41,610 nucleotides of DNA, taken from the IMG/VR virus record IMGVR_UViG_2537561977_000020, one strand, 5' to 3'. The stretch is from a virus (lineage: Duplodnaviria > Heunggongvirae > Uroviricota > Caudoviricetes). Below, piece after piece: positions 4,558-17,051 of the stretch (position 1 is the stretch's first letter; every line of letters begins with the position of its first letter). A program made the position numbers and the translations under genes. The notes under the pieces were generated by a model. That model did no database searches. It had not been told where the DNA came from and saw nothing but the letters and a program-made list of their open reading frames with translations.

Positions 4558-4591
4558 ATAATTTGGTGATTGAGTTTATGAGGTGTTTGCT

Positions 4592-4936
4592 ATGAGTCGT
4601 GAAGATGCACAGATGAAGATCCGTTTACCTGCGGAGCTGAAAGCGCAGTTAGAAAAAGCAGCTCTGGAAAATAAGCGGTCTATGAATGCGGAAGTACTCC
4701 ATCGTCTCAAAGAAAGCTTTAATGTTTTAGTTCACATAACATATAAAGATTCCGAGGGGGAGTTATCAGATAGTAATACCTGGAAGCGTTTTTTGGAATC
4801 ATCTGAACATGGTGATGAATATAAAAAAGGCTTTGTTAAGCTTGTCAAAGAAAAATATAAACTTGATAAGGAAAATGAGAGGTTATATAGCTTAATTATA
4901 AGCTATTTGAACCCCACAAAGAGTGAAGATGATTAG
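4592..4936 (+). CDS. Arc/Mnt-type ribbon-helix-helix repressor
   Basis: N-terminus KIRLPAELKAQLEKAALENKRSMNAEVLHRLKESF resembles Arc/Mnt RHH fold; ATG 4592 with GAGGTG upstream (track lists GTG 4583). Confidence 0.6.
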   Translation: MSREDAQMKIRLPAELKAQLEKAALENKRSMNAEVLHRLKESFNVLVHITYKDSEGELSDSNTWKRFLESSEHGDEYKKGFVKLVKEKYKLDKENERLYSLIISYLNPTKSEDD

Positions 4937-5066
4937 TTTGTGTTTGTAAGTCTGAATAATATTTCTGCATTTACTGAACGCATATTTTTCTTTGCTGTTT
5001 TCTTTAACTCCTCCGCTAATGCGCGGGGGACCCGTAATTTAAACTGTAAGTGCTCATCTGATTTTT

Positions 5067-5336
5067 TCACAATATTCCCTCCAGATTTTTGCTATCCAGC
5101 ACCACTACGGTAAAGCCCAGTTTTCGCAGACGTTCATGTTCGCGCAATTGGTCAGGCCGTGGTGGCTTGCCGGGAGATTTACATTCAACGAAAACGATAC
5201 GACCACCTGGTAGCAGGACAATGCGATCCGGTACCGAGCGGTGACCGGGAGATACAAACTTAAAGGCCACTCCGCCAGCTTTTTTCACTTCAGCGACGAG
5301 GTGCTTTTCGATAAGGCTTTCACGTTCATAGGCCAT
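5067..5336 (-). CDS. VRR-NUC domain nuclease
   Basis: Motif VFVECKSPGKPPRPDQ typical of VRR-NUC; probable start MAYERE at 5336. Confidence 0.55.
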   Translation of the reverse strand: MAYERESLIEKHLVAEVKKAGGVAFKFVSPGHRSVPDRIVLLPGGRIVFVECKSPGKPPRPDQLREHERLRKLGFTVVVLDSKNLEGIL

Positions 5337-5625
5337 CTGAATCCCACTCTTCAAAAAGCACATTCAATTCCAGTTTCTCTGCCAATGCGTTTTCTGCACG
5401 TGCGCCGGCAGAGTACTCCCACTCTTTGAGCATATAAATCGTATCGGCACAGCGAAGCATTGCGAGGCAGATGTCCATATACTGAGCCTGTGTCAAACCA
5501 TTGGGTAAAGTTGCGGGGTTAAGCACAACGTATCCCTTGTCCGTTAGCCTCTTTGCTGCGGAATGAAAGGCCGGGCGGTTAAATTGTTCGTAACCGCTCA
5601 TAGGCCCGGCAACGTAAACGATCAT
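5326..5625 (-). CDS. DUF4406-like protein (nucleoside deoxyribosyltransferase-like fold)
   Basis: MIVYVAGPMSGYEQFNRPAF...NPA pattern recalled for DUF4406. Confidence 0.45.
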   Translation of the reverse strand: MIVYVAGPMSGYEQFNRPAFHSAAKRLTDKGYVVLNPATLPNGLTQAQYMDICLAMLRCADTIYMLKEWEYSAGARAENALAEKLELNVLFEEWDSDGL

Positions 5626-5837
5626 TCTTCGACCGCCTTACGCTTTTCACGCATATTCTGCATCAGGCAAAAATCAGATCTGCGTTCACTCCATTCCTGA
5701 TTCAGTTCGTGATGTGATTCGCGGTTGGCTTTTGCCCAGGCCTTCGCTGCCCGGTCATATTCGCCGGACTGCTCAAGGCGCAAGGCCTCCCTCGCAGCCC
5801 GGTAATAAAGTGGGCTGTCCCGATATTTAAATGACAT
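5622..5837 (-). CDS. small hypothetical protein, possibly ANR-family-like regulator
   Basis: 71 aa, helical, resembles small prophage ANR proteins from memory; weak. Confidence 0.3.
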   Translation of the reverse strand: MSFKYRDSPLYYRAAREALRLEQSGEYDRAAKAWAKANRESHHELNQEWSERRSDFCLMQNMREKRKAVEE

Positions 5838-5853
5838 AGCTTTCGAGTCCTGT

Positions 5854-5878
5854 AAAAAGCCCCTGACTGAGCAGGGGC
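5854..5878 (-). terminator. intrinsic terminator after antirepressor cassette 1
   Basis: Minus-strand hairpin GCCCCUG-CUCAGU-CAGGGGC then U5; near-identical copy at 10090..10114. Confidence 0.6.
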
Positions 5879-5889
5879 GAATTGAAGGA

Positions 5890-6654
5890 TTAACGGGGTA
5901 ACTCTGGTGGAATATATCTGCCGATGCGGTCTTCTATGGTCGGCAGAATGCACATGCTGTCGTTAAAGCGGTCATGCAGTTTGTAGACCAGTTTCGAATC
6001 CATTTTTTCGAGAGCAGGCATTAACTGCGCTCGCCAGATTTCATTAATACGTCGGAAGTTATGACAGACGGCGCGGAGATTGTTGATGAACATTTCCTTT
6101 TCTGCGTCACTGATTCCGGTCTGTGCTTTCTGAATGCATTTCGTGCTGCCATTCCGGTAGAAGCGTTCCTGGGCAGCGACAGCCTCATCCACGGATGGAT
6201 AACACCCTACGTAAACGCTTTTCTCTCCGTTCCATGCGTAGGCTCTGTACGGGTTGTATTTGCTCTGGTGATGGTAAACCATCTTCGGCAGGCACTCCCT
6301 GTGCGGCGCCAGTATCGTGGAGGACTGCTGGTGCAGTTTGCGTTCGCATTCGATGAAGTATCGGCGTATCTGGCGACCTTTTTCGTTACGCTCGACCATC
6401 GCCAGTTCTTTGGCTGTATCGAGGGTGAGGTGGTAGTCCTTACAAAGAACATTTTTACGCTTTCCAGTTTTGGAAAGCGTTACGATATAATCCTGATTTT
6501 CAACGAATTTATAGTCTGCAATTCGTGATGTAATCCATGCTGCAAACACTTTCCCTACCCCAAGGAATGCGTGCAGATCGCGAGCATTGCAGAGCAGGGT
6601 GATTTCGTTGGCGATAGCGCCGTTGAAAACGGGGATGAGTTGAGCTGCCATCAC
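5890..6654 (-). CDS. antirepressor (AntA-like N-domain + KilA-C-like C-domain)
   Basis: N-terminal IPVFNGAIANEITLLCNARDLHAFLGVGKVFAAWITSRI; C-terminal ~145 aa nearly identical to ORF 10126..10899. Confidence 0.6.
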   Translation of the reverse strand: MMAAQLIPVFNGAIANEITLLCNARDLHAFLGVGKVFAAWITSRIADYKFVENQDYIVTLSKTGKRKNVLCKDYHLTLDTAKELAMVERNEKGRQIRRYFIECERKLHQQSSTILAPHRECLPKMVYHHQSKYNPYRAYAWNGEKSVYVGCYPSVDEAVAAQERFYRNGSTKCIQKAQTGISDAEKEMFINNLRAVCHNFRRINEIWRAQLMPALEKMDSKLVYKLHDRFNDSMCILPTIEDRIGRYIPPELPR

Positions 6655-6941
6655 AGTTACCTCTAACGGTGAAATTCACCGCCACCACTGAGTTGCAAAT
6701 CTCATATGGGTGGCGAACTGACGAGGTTTGCAATACCGGCGTTAGAGGAAACCGGCGCGCCGAAGCGCCCCCGCCAGCCCGCCATAATGCGAACGTGGCA
6801 AAGCTTGCGACAATAAAAAAGACGCTGGCGCGTCTGGTGTCGCCCCTAACAATTCCGGGTTGCAAATCCCGATCTCCATTTGGGAGATTCGGTGAGCATA
6901 AACCGGAAGGGGGTGATGAGTCAATATCGGGGTAGCAGGGC

Positions 6942-7022
6942 GGTCGGGTACTTGAACACCGCAGCAAGTCGGCCCGTATCCTTAGCCTTTCGGCTGTTTT
7001 TCGGTATACGCGCTACCCGACC
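6942..7022 (-). promoter_or_regulatory. structured leader element (long-range stem enclosing GNRA-type hairpin)
   Basis: Inverted repeat GGTCGGGTA (6942-6950) / TACCCGACC (7014-7022) enclosing 63 nt with AGCC-GAAA-GGCU hairpin; homologous element with compensatory changes at 10938..11016. Confidence 0.45.
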
Positions 7023-7106
7023 ATATCTGAAAATGGACATAAAAAATCCGCATGACTGACGGGCGCGGTTTCCGCTTGCTGTGGTGTGTTCAGCACCATG
7101 AAGCGG

Positions 7107-7136
7107 AATATACCTATTGGTCATCGCGGATGTCAA
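7107..7136 (-). promoter_or_regulatory. sigma70-like promoter of antirepressor cassette 1
   Basis: Minus strand TTGACA (7136-7131), 18-bp spacer, TATATT (7112-7107); conserved copy at 11121..11150. Confidence 0.55.
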
Positions 7137-10059
7137 TCTTTCCGGTATCTGTAAGATTCGAATCCTCCGGCGTTTAGTGGAATGCTCGTGGCCCAGTCAG
7201 GAACGGTTGCCAGTAACTGGCTGACATGTTCTGCTGAGTAATCGGGTGAGTCAGGGGCCTCACTTATAATTTCATCGTGTACCGTCAGCACAATGCTGTA
7301 ACCGGCATCTTCGATAAGCGGCATGTTTCCGGCCAGAACGTCGCGGGCGGCCGCCTGGGTGACGTTCTCCACCAGCTTTCCGCCGTAGGTTTTGAGTCGT
7401 TGCCATTTACGCGAATAAGAGTTAACACCCATATAGGTGATATTCCCTTTTTCGATAACCGGAGACGGGTAGCATACAGCGCGTCCGGATGGTAGCTGTA
7501 TGCGCAGCCACGCGCCATCGCGGCGGATTTTAAGATAACCGCAATACAATGTTTTTTGCGGTGTGGCGATTGCAGTGCGGACGGTGCGCTCCAGTTCGTA
7601 CCAGAAATCGCAGGTCGCCGGGTGCGCCCTGCGCCAGAGACGTTTAAGTGAGTCGCAGGCGATAAATACCCGTTCAGAAAGGCCGTAGGTTGACTTACGT
7701 TTAACCGATTCGTAGTACCAGCTTTTCGCCTCGCGGATAACATCGCGGGGAATGTTTGGCAGTGCGGCGTTCGCCAGCTCGTCGAGATCGAGACTGTAAA
7801 CCAGTGCAAAAGTGATGAAGGCCGACACACCACCACCGTACCCGCAGTTGTGAACGATTAAATGTCCTGAGTCGGTTTTAATCGTGAATCTGTTTCGAGG
7901 CCCCGCATGTGCAATGTCGTAAACATCGCTCCAGCTCGTCGATACGTTTTTGCAGGTCTGCGATTTTTCTTCTGTTGCGGTTATTGTCTGCTTTGGAGAC
8001 GAACTGGATATTACCCGGTTCGTAGCCTTTGTTATTGTCGATGCGATCCATTTCCAACTTTGGGTCATTAAACCCTTTGATTTCCCTGACGTGTAGCAAA
8101 AAAGCTCTTTTATCTTCCTGCCATAGCTGACAAACGTAGATCCCCCGACCGCCGTAGTTGTGAAACAACCTGTTGGTGGGTTTATGGCAACGGCTGATTG
8201 CGGCAGACAATCGGTTAAGTAGCCTGCGACGGGTTTCGTCATCTGCAATAGCATCCGCATAGCATAAGAATTTTTTACGATACTCGTTATGCTTTTTCTT
8301 TGCGCAAATGTTACATCGGGTACTTTTTCCTTTAAGGAGATTGCTGATTGTTGCGGTGTGAGGCATTGCACCACATTTGCATTTGACAAGTATCCTTCGG
8401 TCTTTTCCGGGTACTTTTTCCAGTTCTTTGATAACGGTAAGTTCTCCGAAGCAAGTTCCAGGCTTTGGTGAAGCGTATTTTTGTTTAAAGCGATAAGGTT
8501 TGCCAGCTTCCATCCAGTAGGGGTTAGCACCTGGTGATCCGGGGTCATTTTTGCTCCGTCCAGTGATATTAAGGCTTTGTACCCCCTGTAAATCAGTCCT
8601 TCGTGTTTTACCCATTCTTCTCCGTCCCATAACAAATCCGCGCCCGAAATACTAACAAGCGGCTTATAGCCTTTATCGGTGAGCACTAAAGTATCCGGAG
8701 CTATGCAAGCCAATTCCAGCACTTTACCTATCTGGCGCTGGTCTTTGGTGACGCGCTCAACTTCAATTCCGTAAGCTTTTGCATACGCCAGTTTATATAA
8801 GTCCGGACCCGCTCCGGCGTCGTACTCTCTGAATGCATTCAGTTTCCATTCTTCTCCCGCCAGCCATGCCAGCATACGGCCTTCAATGTTCGACAAGTCA
8901 CTTACCACCAGTTTTTACCTGTTGGCGCGATAATGCAGCCACGTAACGCTGAACTGGTTAGTTCCATGATATTGTCAAACAGCAGGTCTGCACATCCGGC
9001 TTTCAGTGCTTCGATGCCTTCGTCTATTTGTTCCTGTTTTAGTGAAGGGCGGGGAAGATTCTGGGGCTGGAATAGCCGTCCGGCCCAGCGCCCGGTACGT
9101 GACGCCCCGCAGAACTGTAGCGTACCGCGTAAGCGCCCGTCGTGGCTTACGCCTTTCATCAGTGCCTTGTATTTACTGGTGCTGGTAGTACTGGCTTGCT
9201 GGCGGATAGCCAGCAGTTCTTTCACGGCAGATGGTAAATCGGGGTCGGCTATACGACGTTCCAGGGTACTGCGTTGCATGTCTGGTAGCTCCACACCGTA
9301 GGATTCAACGATGTGCTTAATCAACGCGTCCCGTTGTGTGGCTGCCTGCACTTCGCCATCAGTCATTTCCTGTGTACGCTTTGCCAGGCGCTTTTGCTCC
9401 TGGTCTACCGCTTCGATCGCAGCGCGCGCGAGTTGAATGTCCATGCAGACGCCCCGGTCGTTGATCTGCTGATCACGATGCCAGAGCGCCAGTTCTGTCC
9501 CCTGATAATTCCACTTCGGCAGACGTTTATAGACTTCGCGCATTGCCTCGATATCCAGCCCGGCGTAAGCAACAAAGCGCCGCCATTCTTCCGGGTGGGT
9601 TTTACTGGTGGCCCGACGCAGTTTGCTGTTTTTCGGGCGTGGCTTACAGAACAGCTGGATCAGCGCTTTACCTTCTTTGTCCTTCGCTTTGTCTTGCGGG
9701 ACGCCGAGTATTTCGCAGAGTTCCCCCAGAGACCCCGGGAGGCCGTGCGCCAGCGCCTGCACCATTGTGTCGCGCCAACGTTCGACTGGCGGTGCCAGTC
9801 GCGGCATTGCATAACGCAGGACGGTGCGGTCGAAGTGAGAGTTATGAAAATAAAGCAGGGTCTCAGGGGCTGCGATTGCTTCGTATAAGCCGTGTGGAAT
9901 ACCACCACCGGCAGTGATATCCCACACGTTTACGGGCCCGTCGTTGATAGCCCATGCGAACAGCATCACTTCAACGCCTTCGGCATACGCATGGGTACCG
10001 TTCGTAATAGGGATTTCGCAATAGGTTTCCAGGTCGCCCCATAGAATGTTTTCAGACAA
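7133..10059 (-). CDS. family A DNA polymerase (3'-5' exo + pol), frame-broken and intein-containing
   Basis: Exo motifs [33 protein letters not shown]; pol motifs [26 protein letters not shown] (motif A), [10 protein letters not shown]|CGYGGG (motif B split), LTVHDEI (motif C). Two track ORFs (8902..10059, 7133..8908) joined by -1 shift at T5 run 8912-8916. TTG start 10059 with GGAGGA upstream. Confidence 0.7.
7847..8707 (-). mobile_element. intein inserted in DNA polymerase motif B
   Basis: Begins Cys after KVLELA (CIAPDTLVL...), block B TPDHQVLT, ends ...HLIVHN followed by +1 Cys (CGYGGG); 287 codons. Confidence 0.6.
7878..8630 (-). CDS. HNH homing endonuclease ORF nested in the intein, different frame from Hint blocks
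   Basis: [12 protein letters not shown]...[28 protein letters not shown] plus Cys-rich N-region (CKCG...RCNIC); recognisable domain from about 8513 (MEAGKPYRF); frame is -1 relative to intein splicing blocks. Confidence 0.55.
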   Translation of the reverse strand: MGRRRMGKTRRTDLQGVQSLNITGRSKNDPGSPGANPYWMEAGKPYRFKQKYASPKPGTCFGELTVIKELEKVPGKDRRILVKCKCGAMPHTATISNLLKGKSTRCNICAKKKHNEYRKKFLCYADAIADDETRRRLLNRLSAAISRCHKPTNRLFHNYGGRGIYVCQLWQEDKRAFLLHVREIKGFNDPKLEMDRIDNNKGYEPGNIQFVSKADNNRNRRKIADLQKRIDELERCLRHCTCGASKQIHD

Positions 10060-10089
10060 GACAGGGTCCTCCGTGGACTAAACGGTGAC

Positions 10090-10114
10090 AAAAAGCCCCT
10101 GGCTGAGCAGGGGC
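10090..10114 (-). terminator. intrinsic terminator after antirepressor cassette 2
   Basis: Minus-strand hairpin GCCCCUG-CUCAGCC-AGGGGC then U5; paralogous to 5854..5878. Confidence 0.6.
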
Positions 10115-10125
10115 GGATTGAATGA

Positions 10126-10899
10126 TTAACGAGGTAAAGTGGGTGGAATATATCTGCCGATGCGGTCTTCTATGGTCGGCAGAGCACACATGCTGTCGCT
10201 GAAGCGATCATGCAACTGGTAAACCAGTTTCGAATCCATTTTTTCGAGGGCAGGCATTAACTGCGAGCGCCAGATTTCATTGATGCGCCGGAAGTTATGA
10301 CAGATGGCGCGGAGATTGTTGATGAACATTTCCTTCTCTGCGTCATTGATTGCTGTCTGCACTTTCTGAATACGCTTTGTGCTGCCGTTCCGGTAAAAGT
10401 CCTTCTGCGCAGCGACAGCCTCATCCACGGTTGGATAGCACCCGACGTAAACGTTCTTCTCTCCGTTCCATGCGTAGGCTCTGTACGGGTTGTATTTGCT
10501 ACTGTGGTGGTAAACCATTTTCGGCAGACACTCCCTGTGCGGCGCCAGTACCGTGGAGGACTGCGGAATAGCGGTTTCTTTCTCTATAAGATCAAGCACC
10601 CAACGGCGAAATTCTTTTGCTACTGGCGTTGTTGCGAACATCGCTACCAGGTGAGCACCGCGTAGAGAGAAAATGCGGTTATTCATTTGGACGGAGCCGG
10701 TTTTCCTAACGACCGTCAATTTGACGGTCGTTGTCATTTCAACTGAAAACTCATCCCGATTACGGTCATAAATACGAGCGACTGAGTCCGTTCGTGAGTA
10801 TTCCAGCGCGGTCGCCAGAGTGGCAGCGGTGAACCAAGATTTGCCGTTATGTTCGATCGTTTCGAGAATGTGGGATTTGAATACGAGTTGGGTACTCAT
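10126..10899 (-). CDS. Bro-N/KilA-C type antirepressor-like protein
   Basis: Probable start MSTQLVFKSH at 10899 (track ORF extends to 11064 through the leader); Bro-N-like N-domain; C-terminal domain paralogous to 5890..6654. Confidence 0.55.
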   Translation of the reverse strand: MSTQLVFKSHILETIEHNGKSWFTAATLATALEYSRTDSVARIYDRNRDEFSVEMTTTVKLTVVRKTGSVQMNNRIFSLRGAHLVAMFATTPVAKEFRRWVLDLIEKETAIPQSSTVLAPHRECLPKMVYHHSSKYNPYRAYAWNGEKNVYVGCYPTVDEAVAAQKDFYRNGSTKRIQKVQTAINDAEKEMFINNLRAICHNFRRINEIWRSQLMPALEKMDSKLVYQLHDRFSDSMCALPTIEDRIGRYIPPTLPR

Positions 10900-10937
10900 G
10901 GTTTTATGCCCTAGTAGATATTTTGAATTTACCCTTT

Positions 10938-11016
10938 TTGAGAGGGTGGTCGGGCGCTCAAAACCGCTACTAGTCGGCGGGCGTATTTCCCTTCGGAAGG
11001 GTGTTGTATTAGCCGC
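10938..11016 (-). promoter_or_regulatory. structured leader element, cassette 2
   Basis: GGTCGGGCG (10938-10946) / CGCCCGACC (11008-11016) enclosing 61 nt with CCCUUCGGAAGGG hairpin; arms covary with cassette 1. Confidence 0.45.
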
Positions 11017-11120
11017 ACGCCCGACCATTGAATTCTCAATATCATGGACATAAAAAATCCGCATGACTGACGGGCGCGGTTTCCGCTAGTAGAAAAGGTG
11101 TTTTGAGCACCATGAAGCGG

Positions 11121-11150
11121 AATATACCCATTGGTTATCGCGGATGTCAA
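11121..11150 (-). promoter_or_regulatory. sigma70-like promoter of antirepressor cassette 2
   Basis: Minus strand TTGACA (11150-11145), 18-bp spacer, TATATT (11126-11121). Confidence 0.55.
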
Positions 11151-11184
11151 TGTATGCTTTTGCAAAAGGTTGTCATCCCCTTTG

Positions 11185-11210
11185 CAAAAACACCCGGCGT
11201 GTAACCGGGC
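11185..11210 (-). terminator. intrinsic terminator after SSB gene
   Basis: Minus-strand hairpin CCCGG-UUACACG-CCGGG then UGUUUUUG. Confidence 0.5.
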
Positions 11211-11225
11211 GTCTATGAAGAAGGG

Positions 11226-11773
11226 TTAAATTAGTGCTTCAGCATCAGCACTTTCGCTGATATCGTCGAAATCGTCAGCGCTTGCCACTCCGCCGCCAGC
11301 GAATGCATCGCCGTCTCGCAGGAACTGGACTCCGCCGAGTGAGGCATTAATGCGTTTACCGAAATTATTGTCCTGTGCCCAGATATCGATAACGGCGTTT
11401 ACATAGCACCCTGCATAGGGACGTCCATCAGCCTGAATTAGTGGCGAACGATCGCGATCAAGAACAGCTGGGCGCGCTTTGTTAGCAGCGTTCAGGAAGA
11501 AATTGCCGGGAAAGCCTTCATACTCTGCTTTTTCATCACCATCATGCAGGCACAGATTGAGTTTTTCTCCAGCTGGTTATAAATGGACTCCAACTTCTCC
11601 CCCCATTTTTCCTTCGCTACCTGCTTCATAGCTTTACGGATTTCTTCCAGTTGTGGGTGTTTGGGAGACATTAAAAATACTGCGGAGAAACGCGGATCGC
11701 CTTCGCCGTTTACAGTTTTAGCTTCAAACAGAGCAGGAAAAGCTAATCTCACGTTATTTAATTTAATCTTCAT
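11226..11773 (-). CDS. DUF2815-type phage single-strand DNA-binding protein, frame-broken
   Basis: N-terminus MKIKLNNVRLAFPALFEAK; continues in -1 frame after T5 run 11562-11566 as LCLHDGDEKAEYEGFPGNFF...ending 11226; track shows only 11492..11773. Confidence 0.6.
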
Positions 11774-12285
11774 TTCAAAACTCCTATAAATTCTATGGAT
11801 TCTTTTTCCGCTGCTTTACGCGCAATTACAGCTTCCGCTACGGAATTAAATAGACCTAAATGTTTTTCTTTGCCGTGCAGCTTTATATAAGCTCTCCACT
11901 TATTACGGTGACGGCAAACCCCAACGGCACCGCTTTTATTATCAGAGCGTAAGGATTGGTTAATGTTATTTTCGGTAGAGGTTACAAGTCGTAGATTAGA
12001 AAGGGTGTAATTGCTCCGATTTTTGTCTATGTGATCTACCTCTAATCCCGAGGGGATACTACCGTTATGCATAACCCAGACGATGCGATGTAACAACATT
12101 TTCCGACCGTTTACACTTACGTGATAATACCCGTCCGGCCTTATATGTCCCGCTTGCTTATCTGCATATTTAGCATTCCAGGACAAATAGTCTCGCCGGG
12201 TTTTAAAATGGGTGAGCGGACGATATTTCCATATTAAAACGCCATTGTGATACCGGAAGCATTCATTTAAATATTCTTGATCCAA
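11770..12285 (-). CDS. HNH homing endonuclease (HNH + AP2-like DNA-binding domain)
   Basis: EVDHIDKNRSNYTLSNLRLVTSTEN and SGAVGVCRHRNKWRAYIKLHGKEKHLGLF. Confidence 0.65.
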   Translation of the reverse strand: MDQEYLNECFRYHNGVLIWKYRPLTHFKTRRDYLSWNAKYADKQAGHIRPDGYYHVSVNGRKMLLHRIVWVMHNGSIPSGLEVDHIDKNRSNYTLSNLRLVTSTENNINQSLRSDNKSGAVGVCRHRNKWRAYIKLHGKEKHLGLFNSVAEAVIARKAAEKESIEFIGVLK

Positions 12286-12299
12286 ATAACCTCCTTAAA

Positions 12300-13601
12300 T
12301 CAGATGAGGTCTGCGGTTAGCGTATCGTCGGATACGTCGTCGAAATCATTTACAGGGTTGATATTGAGTGCGGGGTGTGGGTCTGACTCGGGAACGACGG
12401 TGGGTTTACCATCAGCTCGTGTTATCAGTGCCTCGACTTTTGACCAACGGCGCGGACTGGCCTTTTTGATAAGTTTTTCGGCTTTTGTGGGACTAATAAG
12501 TTTAAAGTCGAATACTTCTTCAGTTTTGTACCTGAACTGGTCCTTCAGAAGTGCGCGAGCTGCCTCTTCATCACTCCAGGCCCGGTTACCTTGTTTTCCT
12601 GTTACCAGTTTAAACCCCGGTACCGGATGTCCGGCATTGAGTTCATTGTGAACCCGGTCCCGTACTGCCTTTAGCCAGGATTCAATAAAGTCGGCCTGAC
12701 TATAGATCTCCGCAAGCTGCTCAATGGTTAACAGAGGTACACGTGCGCTGGCATTGGTGATTATTTCGCTGACAGGCTTTGTCAGATCTTCAAAATCGCT
12801 GGCCGCTGTTTGTAAATGCTGCATTTTCTGGGCAGTGCAAATAGCTTTTGCTTTACAGAAGCGGCACTGTTTTTCTCCAGGTATGAAGTTTTCCAGCGGT
12901 AGTGTCTCAATGCCTTCGCATTCAGCAATATTGAGAACAAGGATCGCACTGGTTGCGGCCTCCAGCGCCCGTTCACCGAAAGACTGAAGTTCCTGTACGG
13001 TTAACGACCATTCTGAAACGTGGTTGAGCCTTGGCTGGTGAATAAATAATCTTACAGTTTCAAAGTCATACAGCATGCTGAATTGTTCAAGCGCACCCAG
13101 AGCATATAGTTGTAGTTGCTCATTTTGTTCTGCATCAATGCGGACGCCTTTGCCATATTTCAGGTCGTGGATTTGTAATTCGTTACCAGCGATGATTATG
13201 CCGTCGGCAGTTCCGAAAGATTCTTCCACCCCCGTTATATGTGAGAAATCAACACGTTGTTCAACCAATAGTTCATTATTCTGTGCAAGAGTCCAGACCG
13301 TATCAACATACCGGCCAACGGCTTCGACCATTTCATCATCCACCTGTGGGCCAGATGTATCATCAGGATTTTCGCGAAGGGGGTATGAGCCGAGAAACAT
13401 AGAAACATTGCATCCGGCGTAGTGTTCCGGGTGGCTTTGCCTGTTTCGTAGAACTTTTTCAGCAAGTGCGTGCGCTGCAGTGCCCTCGATTGCAAAAGTT
13501 GTTTCTTTATCCGGTTGTGTGGCCTCCAGCGCCAGACTACCCGCACACCTTAGCCAACGATGTGCAGATGATGGTGATAATCGTGCATGAACATCAGGCA
13601 T
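12300..13601 (-). CDS. DUF2800-type PD-(D/E)XK nuclease
   Basis: N-terminal [16 protein letters not shown] and C-terminal Cys cluster [10 protein letters not shown], recalled for DUF2800 proteins that accompany DUF2815 and PolA in phage replication modules. Confidence 0.6.
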
Positions 13602-14112
13602 TCATGACCTCCTGAATGTGTTTTCGCCGCGCAGCCGCTGCGAGTTGTTTGGTGGGGAAATGACCGAGAGATTTGAATTTGCCGTTTACTCGTCCGTAGG
13701 CCTGCCACGGTTTTTTCTTACCTTCGCTGAACCGAACGCCAACCACTCCAGATTTATTTTTTCTGGTGTGAGAGTTAGCCCTGTTTTGTGAAAGAGAGGC
13801 CCAGCGAAGATTTACCGCCCGGTTGTCATCTCGACGACCGTTAATGTGGTCAACTTCAGGGGCAGATCCGGGAATAAATGCTGCGGCAACGAGACGGTGT
13901 ATTTTGACGGTTACCTTTTTACCCGCTTTCCATAAGTCGGTGATTAGATATCCGTCTGTGTCATAGCGTGGTTTTAGTGACTTACCTTTAATGGGATAGG
14001 TGCAGCCAGAACCTTTGTTTAATACAGTTCTGTCGAGGCTTCTCAGGTTGCCAGCGTCTGAAATCTGGTAAATGCCTTCAAAGCCTGAAATATCCTTCCA
14101 GGCTTCCGGCAT
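13594..14112 (-). CDS. HNH homing endonuclease (NUMOD4 + HNH + AP2-like)
   Basis: [79 protein letters not shown]. Confidence 0.65.
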
Positions 14113-16333: not shown

Positions 16334-16963
16334 TTATCTTTTTCTGCGGAATATGCGATGTTCTACCATTGTCCCTATGATCTTAATTGGTTTTTCCCAG
16401 GAGCGACAAATAGGGTAATCACTATTCAATGGAACAAGTTCAAAGTCTTCCTCACCTTTAGCGCCAATCCCTACCGGGCGGTATTTTTTGAACGTTGCTT
16501 CGTGGCTACCGTTACATGCCGCAACGAATTCACCAGGAGTAGGGTATACGTCAGTGTCAATTATAACGATGTCCCCCTCTTTAAATTCAGGTTCCATTGA
16601 ATCCCCACGTATACGTAGCGCAAATGAACTTTCTGATAGCTCAGCCGTGGTGAGAATGTATTCGAAATCACCTTCTTCACGAAGTAGCTCAGCGCTTGTG
16701 AAAGCCCCGGCTTGTACGTAGCTTAGAACAGGCACCCTTCGAGCTCCGTAGTTGAAATCTGTAACAACATCGCCCCCAAGAAGTAGCCATTTAGGATCGC
16801 ATTCAAGAGCTGACGCTAAAGCAAGAAGATTGCGTGGTTTAAGTGTTTTCCCATTCTCTATAGCTTCAATCGACTGCTGGCTAATGCCCGCTCGTTTCGC
16901 AACTTCGACCTGAGTTAAGTTTAGTTCTGTTCTGCGTTTTTTAGCTCGGTTGGCAAGATTCAT
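16334..16963 (-). CDS. cI: CI-type repressor (HTH + S24 LexA-like peptidase domain)
   Basis: HTH LNLTQVEVAKRAGISQQSIEAIENG; S24 motif RIRGDSMEP; start MNLANRAKK at 16963 with AAGGAG RBS. Confidence 0.8.
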   Translation of the reverse strand: MNLANRAKKRRTELNLTQVEVAKRAGISQQSIEAIENGKTLKPRNLLALASALECDPKWLLLGGDVVTDFNYGARRVPVLSYVQAGAFTSAELLREEGDFEYILTTAELSESSFALRIRGDSMEPEFKEGDIVIIDTDVYPTPGEFVAACNGSHEATFKKYRPVGIGAKGEEDFELVPLNSDYPICRSWEKPIKIIGTMVEHRIFRRKR

Positions 16964-16990
16964 GTTGACTCCTTTTCTGTCATTGATGAT

Positions 16991-17051
16991 TACAGATACT
17001 TCTGTATTTGACAAACAAGGTTGCCTGTGAGGTAATTACAAGTAAACCTGT
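16991..17051. promoter_or_regulatory. OR-like operator/promoter region between cI and cro
   Basis: Palindrome TACAGAtactTCTGTA (16991-17006), TACAAGTAAACCTGTA (17036-17051), TTGACA (17008-17013) with 17-bp spacer to GGTAAT. Confidence 0.5.

Follow-up and report, generated by a model that had tools for sequence, protein, structure and literature searches.

In this study, we analyzed two small gene cassettes on either side of the DNA polymerase gene of an Escherichia coli prophage, which is represented by IMG/VR virus record IMGVR_UViG_2537561977_000020 (Caudoviricetes; its whole stretch of 41,610 nucleotides (nt) is referred to below as the window). The window shares 99.5% identity with a prophage of E. 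coli O121 strain 201805972 (L004) and contains an integrase gene, a minus-strand replication module (SNF2 helicase, VRR-NUC/PDDEXK, DUF4406, family A polymerase, DUF2815 and DUF2800) and, at 16334-17014, a gene for a CI-type repressor of helix-turn-helix and peptidase S24 domains (LexA-like, self-cleaving type). All genes of cassette A, downstream of the polymerase gene, and of cassette B, upstream of it, are on the minus strand, as are all cassette features given below. A first-pass annotation, made from the letters of the sequence, had described the two as paralogous promoter-leader-gene-terminator units encoding antirepressors with exchanged N-terminal domains. Here, we examined these units together with their leader RNAs, their relatives and the systems that they resemble.

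Gene A (5890..6651, 253 amino acids (aa) from ATG 6651) and gene B (10126..10899, 257 aa from ATG 10899) join different N-terminal domains, AntA (PF08346, 1e-24) and Bro-N (PF02498, 2.1e-11), respectively, to a shared C-terminal domain of ~145 aa. Both were assigned with Pfam; gene A is also a RefSeq coding sequence (CDS) in L004, and the start of gene B agrees with its homologs. The AntA-like and Bro-N-like N-domains that had been read from open reading frames (ORFs) 5890..6654 and 10126..10899 were thus borne out, and the only change concerns the start of the first ORF, which is more likely ATG 6651 than GTG 6654. The 146 C-terminal codons of the two ORFs are 88% identical at the DNA level (25 synonymous and 16 non-synonymous differences), and their N-terminal parts are 50% identical. 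Across 78 protein clusters the shared C-domain, which is confined to Enterobacterales, was found fused to AntA, Bro-N and in one case pRha N-domains, which confirms N-domain swapping as a feature of this family. The designation of the proteins as antirepressors derives only from their N-domains and from the names of their PHROG families, and their C-domain is not a canonical ANT or KilAC domain. No Pfam match for the C-domain was found even at E<=10, and no relative in the PDB by sequence. Its AlphaFold model (pLDDT 75) shows a beta3-alpha unit followed by a helical hairpin; the best fold matches were AP2 DNA-binding domains (E 0.4, not significant). In agreement with this, PHROG gave a weak match between the domain and the AP2-like part of HNH endonucleases. 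The domain is not related to the window's Rha protein. The two proteins may act as antirepressors.

Pairwise alignment of 5840-7150 with 10080-11170, together with segment identities and exact coordinates, recovered every element listed for the two cassettes in the first-pass annotation. The same predicted promoter, TTGACA-18-TATATT, precedes both (P_A1 at 7107..7136 and P_B at 11121..11150), with 28 of 30 positions identical including the spacer. Each site matches 11 of the 12 consensus positions and was the best promoter-like site of its region in a promoter scan. The promoter-proximal block of ~45 nt that had been noticed is an identical run of 44 nt, AGCGGAAACCGCGCCCGTCAGTCATGCGGATTTTTTATGTCCAT, at 7076..7033 and 11087..11044; promoter and block together are identical at 97 of 111 positions, and the differences cluster in two short sites. 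At the other end, the terminators at 5854..5878 and 10090..10114, both called by a terminator scan, read GCCCCTGCTCAG(T/C)CAGGGGC followed by T5, with a single loop base different, and are predicted to form a 7-bp GC-rich stem. The promoter hexamers were kept in all leader variants that we collected, and the spacer sequence varied. The 21-nt spacer motif occurs in the window only at these two promoters (none expected from 100 shuffles). Since no operator-like repeat of it could be found elsewhere in the window, no link to the CI-type repressor could be made.

A search with Rfam at curated thresholds revealed four RNAs in the whole window, all of them inside the two leaders. Two belong to the sRNA-Xcc1 family (RF02221, gathering score 53): one in cassette A (6934-7022, 72.8 bits) and one in cassette B (10940-11026, 70.3 bits). 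Relatives of these RNAs scored 67-78 bits. The two leaders had been called homologous and structured; both copies are indeed full-length sRNA-Xcc1 RNAs, 61% identical to each other, but the description needs to be extended, in that they appear to be antisense RNAs of the C4 type accompanied by target sites. Their layout is C4-like, with a long closing stem, two hairpins and an (A/G)CCCU tail. RefSeq annotates none of the four RNAs on L004. Its Bro-N CDS runs 43 codons further upstream, over the whole sRNA-Xcc1-type RNA (L004 6128-7030, window 10126-11028); this extension is probably wrong, because in homologous leaders the ATG is preceded by a stop codon in the same frame.

Cassette B has the complete layout. 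Following the transcript, we labeled the sites a1, b1, a2 and b2 by analogy with phage P1, and the matching surfaces of the RNA a' and b'. The 5' target block (11044..11120) contains a1 in the loop of the hairpin GGUG[CUCAAAA]CACC (11100-11108), b1 (CUACUAG, 11086-11092) and a hairpin followed by a U-tract (CCGCG-11 nt-UGCGG-U6, 11052-11079). The RNA itself presents b' (CUAGUAG, 10967-10973) in the loop of its second hairpin and a' (GUUUUGAGC, 10956-10964) at its 3' junction. Downstream targets follow at 10900..10947: a2 is presented in the hairpin ACCCU[CUCAAAA]AGGGU (10931-10947), and b2 (10911-10917) lies together with the Shine-Dalgarno (SD) sequence in CUACUAGGG (10909-10917), 10 nt before ATG 10899. 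A relaxed Rfam search of this leader gave no isrK- or C4-like match for the 5' block, which is like IsrK in its design but not in its sequence.

The loop of the U-tract hairpin, CCCGUCAGU (7046-7058 and 11057-11069), was invariant in all leader variants. It was kept even in the most divergent leader (L046 2400-2700), where the stem has changed, and it resembles the 3' strand (CCCGAC) of the closing stem of the RNA.

The leader of cassette A is longer by ~270 nt and contains two more RNA elements and a second promoter-like site. Its promoter-proximal part resembles that of cassette B. The 5' target block (7033..7106), both sites of which covary with the downstream RNA, consists of a1 (UGAACAC, 7086-7092, in the hairpin GGUG[CUGAACA]CACC), b1 (CAGCAAG, 7075-7081) and a U-tract hairpin (CCGCG-11 nt-UGCGG+U6, 7041-7068), and the Xcc1-type RNA carries b' (CUUGCUG, 6962-6968) in its loop and a' (GUGUUCA, 6953-6959) at its junction. 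After the tail of this RNA (..CGCCCUGCU), the part with a2 and b2 and the gene are missing. A putative second promoter, P_A2 (TTGACT-18-TATGCT, 6895..6924, from the promoter scan), would then serve a separate unit of an IsrK-like RNA, a C4 RNA and the AntA-type gene. The IsrK-like RNA (6815-6888) is a marginal member of RF01394 (50.9 bits against a gathering score of 50); a copy in the relative L006 with a 1-nt deletion falls below the threshold. It follows the same design as the 5' blocks, that is, one site in a hairpin loop (AUUUGCAAC, 6859-6867, a1 for C4), a second, single-stranded site (GUUAGGGG, 6843-6850, b1 for C4) and then a terminator (6815-6835), which was called independently by the terminator scan. 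The C4 antisense RNA (6706-6789; RF01695, 70.6 bits against a gathering score of 45) has its loop site CCUCUAAC at 6741-6748 and its junction site UUGCAAA at 6727-6733. Its downstream targets (6655..6705) are UUUGCAA (6693-6699) and GUUAGAGG (6660-6667), the latter covering the SD sequence GAGG of the AntA-type gene. RefSeq places a 45-aa hypothetical protein, which starts inside the first isrK hairpin, across isrK and C4 (L004 2743-2880, window 6742-6879). An ORF of 26 codons runs from the 5' end of C4 and stops ~50 nt short of the AntA-type gene.

How this composite arose can be approached through relatives. In L015 and L036, whose Xcc1-type leaders have the same specificity as cassette A, an intact UCAGCAAGGA lies over the SD sequence. 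L006 contains the isrK-C4-AntA unit without the upstream Xcc1 module; P_A2 is retained there, and a remnant that looks like the tail of an Xcc1-type RNA precedes the unit. Cassette A is therefore a fusion of two modules: an Xcc1-type module that has lost its ribosome-binding site (RBS) target and its gene, and a complete unit of promoter, IsrK-like RNA, C4 and AntA gene. Taken with the order Xcc1-isrK-C4 in Xylella De Donno (PMC12189769), the remnant in L006 also indicates that the three-RNA arrangement may be old and not accidental. The remnant (L006 6345-6400, minus strand) reads 'gcacccagtcgccctgct' and is like the 3' strand of the Xcc1-type closing stem plus tail; in the window, the junction to the isrK-C4-AntA unit is at CGCCCTGCT (6934-6942).

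The assigned sites were examined for covariation. Leader variants gathered from Stx phages, IMG/VR contigs and E. coli genomes represent seven specificity classes on near-identical scaffolds. Their b1/b'/b2 sites are CAGCAAG/CUUGCUG/CAGCAAG in the A type (L036 and L015), CUACUAG/CUAGUAG/CUACUAG in cassette B of the window, UCGAAAG/CUUUCGA/UCGAAAG in L007, UGCAAAG/CUUUGCA/UGCAAAG in L002, AUACAAG/CUUGUAU/AUACAAG in L003, GCGAUAG/CUAUCGC/GCGAUAG in L045 and UCUAAAG/CUUUAGG/GCUAAAG in L046. Counted over the seven variants on 7-mers defined by anchors of our own choosing (a whole-leader MAFFT alignment had the variable loops out of register), all b1:b' cells were paired, five of the seven pairs being changed on both sides, and the covariation score was 0.99 compared with 0.20 +/- 0.08 after shuffling, a level reached by none of 500 shuffles. 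For b':b2, 98% of cells were paired and the score of 0.94 was likewise reached by 0/500 shuffles. When the register was slid, pairing of the b sites fell to 33-55%. Among the variants, three co-varying classes of a sites can be distinguished. Covariation was also observed in the stem presenting a1 (GGUG/CACC vs GAGG/CCUC) and in that of the U-tract hairpin (CCGCG/UGCGG vs CCAAC/GUUGG in L046), and b2 adjoins or overlaps the SD sequence in every variant. The composite sites were found only where the P1 layout predicts them and nowhere else in the 41.6-kb window. Each of the three RNAs (Xcc1-A, Xcc1-B and C4) is complementary to an upstream pair of sites (a1/b1). A downstream pair (a2/b2) over the RBS was present for C4, at the AntA gene, and for Xcc1-B, at the Bro-N gene, but not for Xcc1-A.

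By predicted duplex energy, cognate pairs were favored. The RNA of cassette A pairs with its own 5' target at -26.6 kcal/mol and with that of B at -10.7, whereas the RNA of cassette B reaches -18.0 with its own 5' target and -18.1 kcal/mol with its own 3' target, and -9.7 with the target of A. The two RNAs of the prophage are thus predicted to be orthogonal, without cross-reaction. For the effector region of C4, a duplex of -34.5 kcal/mol was obtained with isrK and equally with the SD region, compared with -21.6 +/- 3.6 for shuffled targets. We also considered a match of 8 nt that links the C4 loop (CGGUUUCC) to GGAAACCG of both 5' blocks, but rejected it, as it was no better than the shuffled background.

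Phage morons are independent promoter-gene-terminator units placed between conserved genes, a concept of Juhala and Hendrix. By prediction, each cassette has its own promoter and its own intrinsic terminator, and comparison with related prophages supported the modular reading: the units are absent from some relatives, occupy another slot in L006 and recur elsewhere, and their C-domain takes part in several fusions. Relatives of the prophage were detected in 337 of 5426 complete E. coli genomes, of which only four have the complete 5000-12400 region; full cassette A was found in nine of the 5426 and full cassette B in five. Slot A is flanked by an ANR-family gene and the polymerase gene (insert 5840-7132), with a diverged allele also in the final ~115 bp of the latter gene; slot B (10051-11192) is flanked by the polymerase gene and the DUF2815 terminator. 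Three collinear relatives, L005, L001 and L006, are without one or both units. In L005, slot A is empty, so that the ANR gene abuts the polymerase gene, and slot B is filled by an unrelated plus-strand gene. Slot A of phage vB_EcoM-689R2 and of L006 has a TIR-like gene, and L006 carries the isrK-C4-AntA unit in slot B, 95% identical to 5853-6942. In Stx phages and other prophages, the 5' promoter/leader module was found again before AntA-, Bro-N- or ORF6N-type genes. The units are therefore missing from otherwise collinear relatives and present in other contexts, and this comparison, together with the rarity of full cassettes, indicates that they are movable and self-contained. The context of the Salmonella homolog is the same polymerase-encoding prophage family; a link to Gifsy-1 (antQ) had been considered for it and was rejected.

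Two further observations concern these positions. Within 7131-7247 (minus strand), the stop codon TGA of the polymerase gene lies inside the -35 hexamer TTGACA of the cassette A promoter, and the final ~38 codons of the polymerase gene form a diverged allele that accompanies slot-A cassettes, so that exchange seems to take place via recombination within the polymerase gene. Tandem pairs of such units occur in Stx and lambdoid prophages, located in the nin region or close to the integrase gene (for example, L003, phage phiSTEC1589-Stx1c, 2161-3962; L046 860-2700); they consist either of isrK-C4-antirepressor followed by Xcc1-leader-Bro/Rha or of two Xcc1-type leaders of different specificity.

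On the basis of these results, we consider it probable that each cassette is a moron-type unit whose gene is gated by an RNA of its own leader, as in P1 immI, P4 and Gifsy-1. Units with their own sigma-70 promoter, one gene and an intrinsic terminator would have been recombined into the two variable slots beside the polymerase gene. The promoter would fire constitutively or under some control and first give a short 5' segment with a1 in a hairpin loop and b1, and many transcripts would end at the leaky U-tract hairpin. Read-through transcripts would carry the ~87-nt sRNA-Xcc1-family RNA of C4-like layout, which is probably excised and accumulates. In cassette B, its b' loop and a' junction would pair in trans with a2/b2 over the SD sequence of the Bro-N gene and block translation. 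As a1 and b1 would compete for the same RNA surfaces, short 5' transcripts could titrate the RNA (IsrK-like activation), or termination could be modulated (P4-like). The 7-nt b site would be the specificity code, hypervariable and making modules blind to each other, so that two can coexist in one prophage. Since this site differs between the cassettes and among relatives, each RNA would control only its own unit, as in P1 vs P7. At the level of predicted RNA-RNA pairing, the mechanism is well supported; by analogy, we infer excision of the RNA (carried out by RNase P in P1 and P4), repression as the direction of control and the action of the proteins.

It should be noted that several points weigh against this interpretation. 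The C4 covariance model gave no match to the Xcc1-type RNA in 10850-11200 at E<=5, so that the analogy with C4 is architectural only. The terminator scan missed the U-tract hairpin of the 5' block, which is weak (5 bp with an 11-nt loop), and the promoters and terminators of the cassettes are predictions from consensus matches only. No composite of a2 and b2 for the Xcc1-type RNA of cassette A was found anywhere in the 41.6-kb window, and the cognate target sequence of L036 occurred in only one other E. coli genome, not that of the prophage host; the RNA of cassette A may thus be a relic. The shared C-domain is not a known antirepressor domain, and the need for an antirepressor is not evident because the prophage has its own LexA-like CI repressor. 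By analogy, the effect demonstrated experimentally for the 5' RNA of Gifsy-1, which is activation and not repression, would also run counter to the proposed direction of control. Finally, covariation among sequences proves pairing but cannot separate pairing in trans from intramolecular folding of a long leader.

The last point leads to an alternative in which the sites act mainly in cis: the leader would fold on itself, a1/b1 with b'/a', into a silent structure that a short 5' RNA opens in trans, and the Xcc1/C4-type element would be a structural part of the mRNA and not a free repressor RNA. This logic was demonstrated for isrK-orf45-anrP in the IsrK study (PMC4825925), where an intramolecular helix b-I forms and short IsrK activates; minimum-free-energy folds of our whole leaders also pair the 5' block with the downstream RNA region, and the U-tract hairpin at the end of each 5' block would let a short RNA go free. 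On the other hand, the Xcc1/C4 elements have kept their closing stem and two hairpins as independent folds that give full-length covariance-model matches, members of these families accumulate as discrete RNAs (sRNA-Xcc1 and STnc1160), and a2/b2 over the SD sequence are explained by occlusion through an RNA, in trans or in cis, but not by an activator alone. We regard control mainly in cis as unlikely, although the two models are not mutually exclusive.

A second alternative takes the cassettes for toxin/antidote-like or defense modules, in which harmful DNA-binding effectors of the KilA-N superfamily, with an AntA or Bro-N N-domain and an AP2-like C-domain, are kept from being translated by the leader RNA as antidote until phage infection or stress. 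The location of sRNA-Xcc1 upstream of, and co-oriented with, the toxin gene symE in Xanthomonas integrons, the TIR-domain genes in the polymerase-adjacent slots of relatives, the C-domain that is not known from antirepressors and has its best, though non-significant, fold matches in AP2, and the presence of a self-cleaving-type CI repressor in the prophage could all be read in this way. Beyond the neighborhood, however, no similarity to known defense proteins was observed in an analysis that did not include PADLOC, the classic setting of an antirepressor (P1 Ant, AnrP) is that of an AntA/Bro-N/ORF6N gene after a C4/IsrK leader, and all PHROG matches were to families annotated as anti-repressor, which makes such a role quite improbable. 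Least credible of all, and in our view very nearly to be dismissed, is the idea that the leaders are alike by shared ancestry of duplicated morons, their RNAs being relics or host-directed trans-acting small RNAs (sRNAs) with no role for the adjacent gene: it draws on a literature that treats sRNA-Xcc1 as a trans-acting, virulence-linked sRNA with many predicted targets (Xanthomonas and Xylella) and on the RNA of cassette A having no adjacent RBS target, but would not lead one to expect three-way covariation of b1/b'/b2 in seven variants with b2 fixed on the SD sequence of the adjacent gene, and near-identical conserved parts flanking the variable sites point to selection on these sites.

Returning to leader RNAs that gate their own units, a wider reading can be considered. 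We put forward, tentatively and as something that falls short of probable, that the whole sRNA-Xcc1 family is a second lineage of addressable leader RNAs of the C4/CI type and not a host-directed virulence sRNA, and that the order Xcc1, IsrK and C4 is a deliberate cascade. Such a reading may span E. coli and Stx prophages, APSE phages, Xylella and the symE cassettes of Xanthomonas integrons. If it were true, a hypervariable 7-nt loop and a junction site would key each RNA to the sites before and after it and gate a KilA-N-type or toxin gene, many orthogonal specificities would coexist in one cell, and the Xcc1-IsrK-C4 order in the window and in Xylella De Donno would be a two-tier RNA cascade and no recombination scar.

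Regardless of this extension, two unannotated leaders, which RefSeq covers with a CDS that is probably wrongly extended and a 45-aa 'hypothetical protein', can be turned into a testable regulatory model. The sRNA-Xcc1 family, now discussed as a virulence sRNA of plant pathogens, would gain a concrete mechanism and targets. At least seven natural, predicted orthogonal RNA/target specificities on one scaffold might serve as a design resource. The model also bears on cross-talk between prophages in polylysogens, including Stx phages in which the same module would drive antirepressor genes. In addition, two cargo slots beside the polymerase gene are documented in a widespread E. coli prophage family, with antirepressor-type units, TIR genes and other cargo.

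Other elements were noticed in the neighborhood of the cassettes. Compared with its copy in L004 (99.7% identical), which is a single CDS of 945 aa, the polymerase gene lacks 1 nt in an A-run and is thereby split into ORFs 8902..10059 and 7133..8908 (minus strand; 8902-8915); either a real frameshift or a homopolymer sequencing error would account for it. An intein-like insert of 870 bp (7844-8713, minus strand), absent from three relatives, interrupts polymerase motif B (..KVLELA|C...VHN|CGYGGG). The insert contains, in another frame, an ORF of 250 aa (7878..8630) that resembles HNH endonucleases (phrog_374, 4.7e-37); the polymerase/intein frame is also open there, so that two long open frames overlap, and the nested ORF has no RefSeq annotation. 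Two free-standing HNH endonuclease genes were found in the replication module on the minus strand (11770-12285, HNH_3; 13594-14112, NUMOD4 and HNH_3), the former within a segment (11734-12291) missing from relatives. Together with the intein, these genes indicate that the replication module has been heavily colonized by selfish elements. Just downstream of the replication genes, the 3' ends of two opposite-strand genes for Arc-family DNA-binding proteins (4583-5070) overlap; one gene is on the plus strand (4583..4936) and the other on the minus strand (4933..5070).

Comparison with known systems places the cassettes as follows. Like morons, they have, by prediction, their own promoter and terminator, sit between genes that abut or have other cargo between them in relatives, and are found at varied positions and in varied phages. 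Unlike in morons, one boundary of the exchange falls within the final ~115 bp of the polymerase gene; the units thus appear to move by recombination in flanking homology and not by precise insertion.

The closest parallel is the immI region of P1 and P7, where, according to the passages on it in PMC8198154, C4 is an antisense repressor made from the c4-icd-ant leader that pairs on the same transcript. In those passages (reporting Citron & Schuster 1990), as in the cassettes, a same-strand antisense RNA lies in an antirepressor leader. The two systems also share two recognition elements, with one pair of sites upstream and one downstream over the RBS, and a specificity set by few bases (heteroimmunity of P1 vs P7), and cassette A contains a true C4-family RNA (70.6 bits). 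In contrast with immI, there is no icd-like ORF between RNA and gene, and the target covers the SD sequence of the AntA/Bro-N gene itself; the RNA of cassette B and of the 5' module of A comes from the sRNA-Xcc1 family and is missed by the C4 model; a U-tract hairpin comes after the upstream sites; the only feature common to the proteins and some Ant proteins is the AntA type of N-domain; and no C1-type operator was identified at the cassette promoter.

Cassette A can also be compared with isrK-orf45-anrP of Salmonella prophage Gifsy-1, of which IsrK is the 5' RNA and for which the authors noted a downstream processed RNA, STnc1160, and an analogy with seqA/CI of P4 (PMC4825925). In both, an IsrK RNA with a terminator is read through into an RNA region (STnc1160 at orf45 in Gifsy-1) and an antirepressor-like gene, and IsrK is complementary to the downstream RNA; in cassette A, isrK is directly followed by C4 and an Ant-type gene. 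The differences are that the region 3' of isrK is here a clear C4-family RNA, that no antQ is nearby and that cassette A has an additional Xcc1-type module upstream. Coupling of the orf45 type is doubtful, because the possible ORF over C4 has only 26 codons and ends ~50 nt before the gene. With P4 immunity (seqA-CI-seqC), compared by description only, the cassettes share a processed leader RNA that would pair upstream and downstream, an upstream target near a termination signal and control on the RNA's own transcript; P4 differs in that replication genes are controlled by premature termination, whereas the downstream target here is the SD sequence.

With regard to the RNA families, C4 and c4-a1b1 motifs were described in 2010 (PMC2864571), and Northern blot and end mapping showed sRNA-Xcc1 of Xanthomonas to be a discrete RNA of 88 nt (PMC2996969). 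APSE phages carry c4 and isrK beside a Bro-N gene and a polymerase gene, and sRNA-Xcc1 upstream of an ORF6N gene; in Xanthomonas integrons, sRNA-Xcc1 lies upstream of symE, and the order of cassette A, sRNA-Xcc1, isrK and C4, is also that of Xylella De Donno (PMC12189769). The RNAs of the cassettes are full-length members of the family (RF02221) and, like those of APSE and Xanthomonas, are located just 5' of a co-oriented small regulatory or toxic gene; in publications, by contrast, sRNA-Xcc1 is described as a trans-acting, virulence-associated sRNA. Neither a1/b1/a2/b2 sites nor a role as a C4-type leader has been described for sRNA-Xcc1 in the literature that we searched. Thus, what we describe is of a known kind, namely immI/IsrK-type control of antirepressor-family morons, in a variant form, with another RNA family, no icd-type ORF, two modules in one prophage that are predicted to be orthogonal and one composite two-RNA leader.

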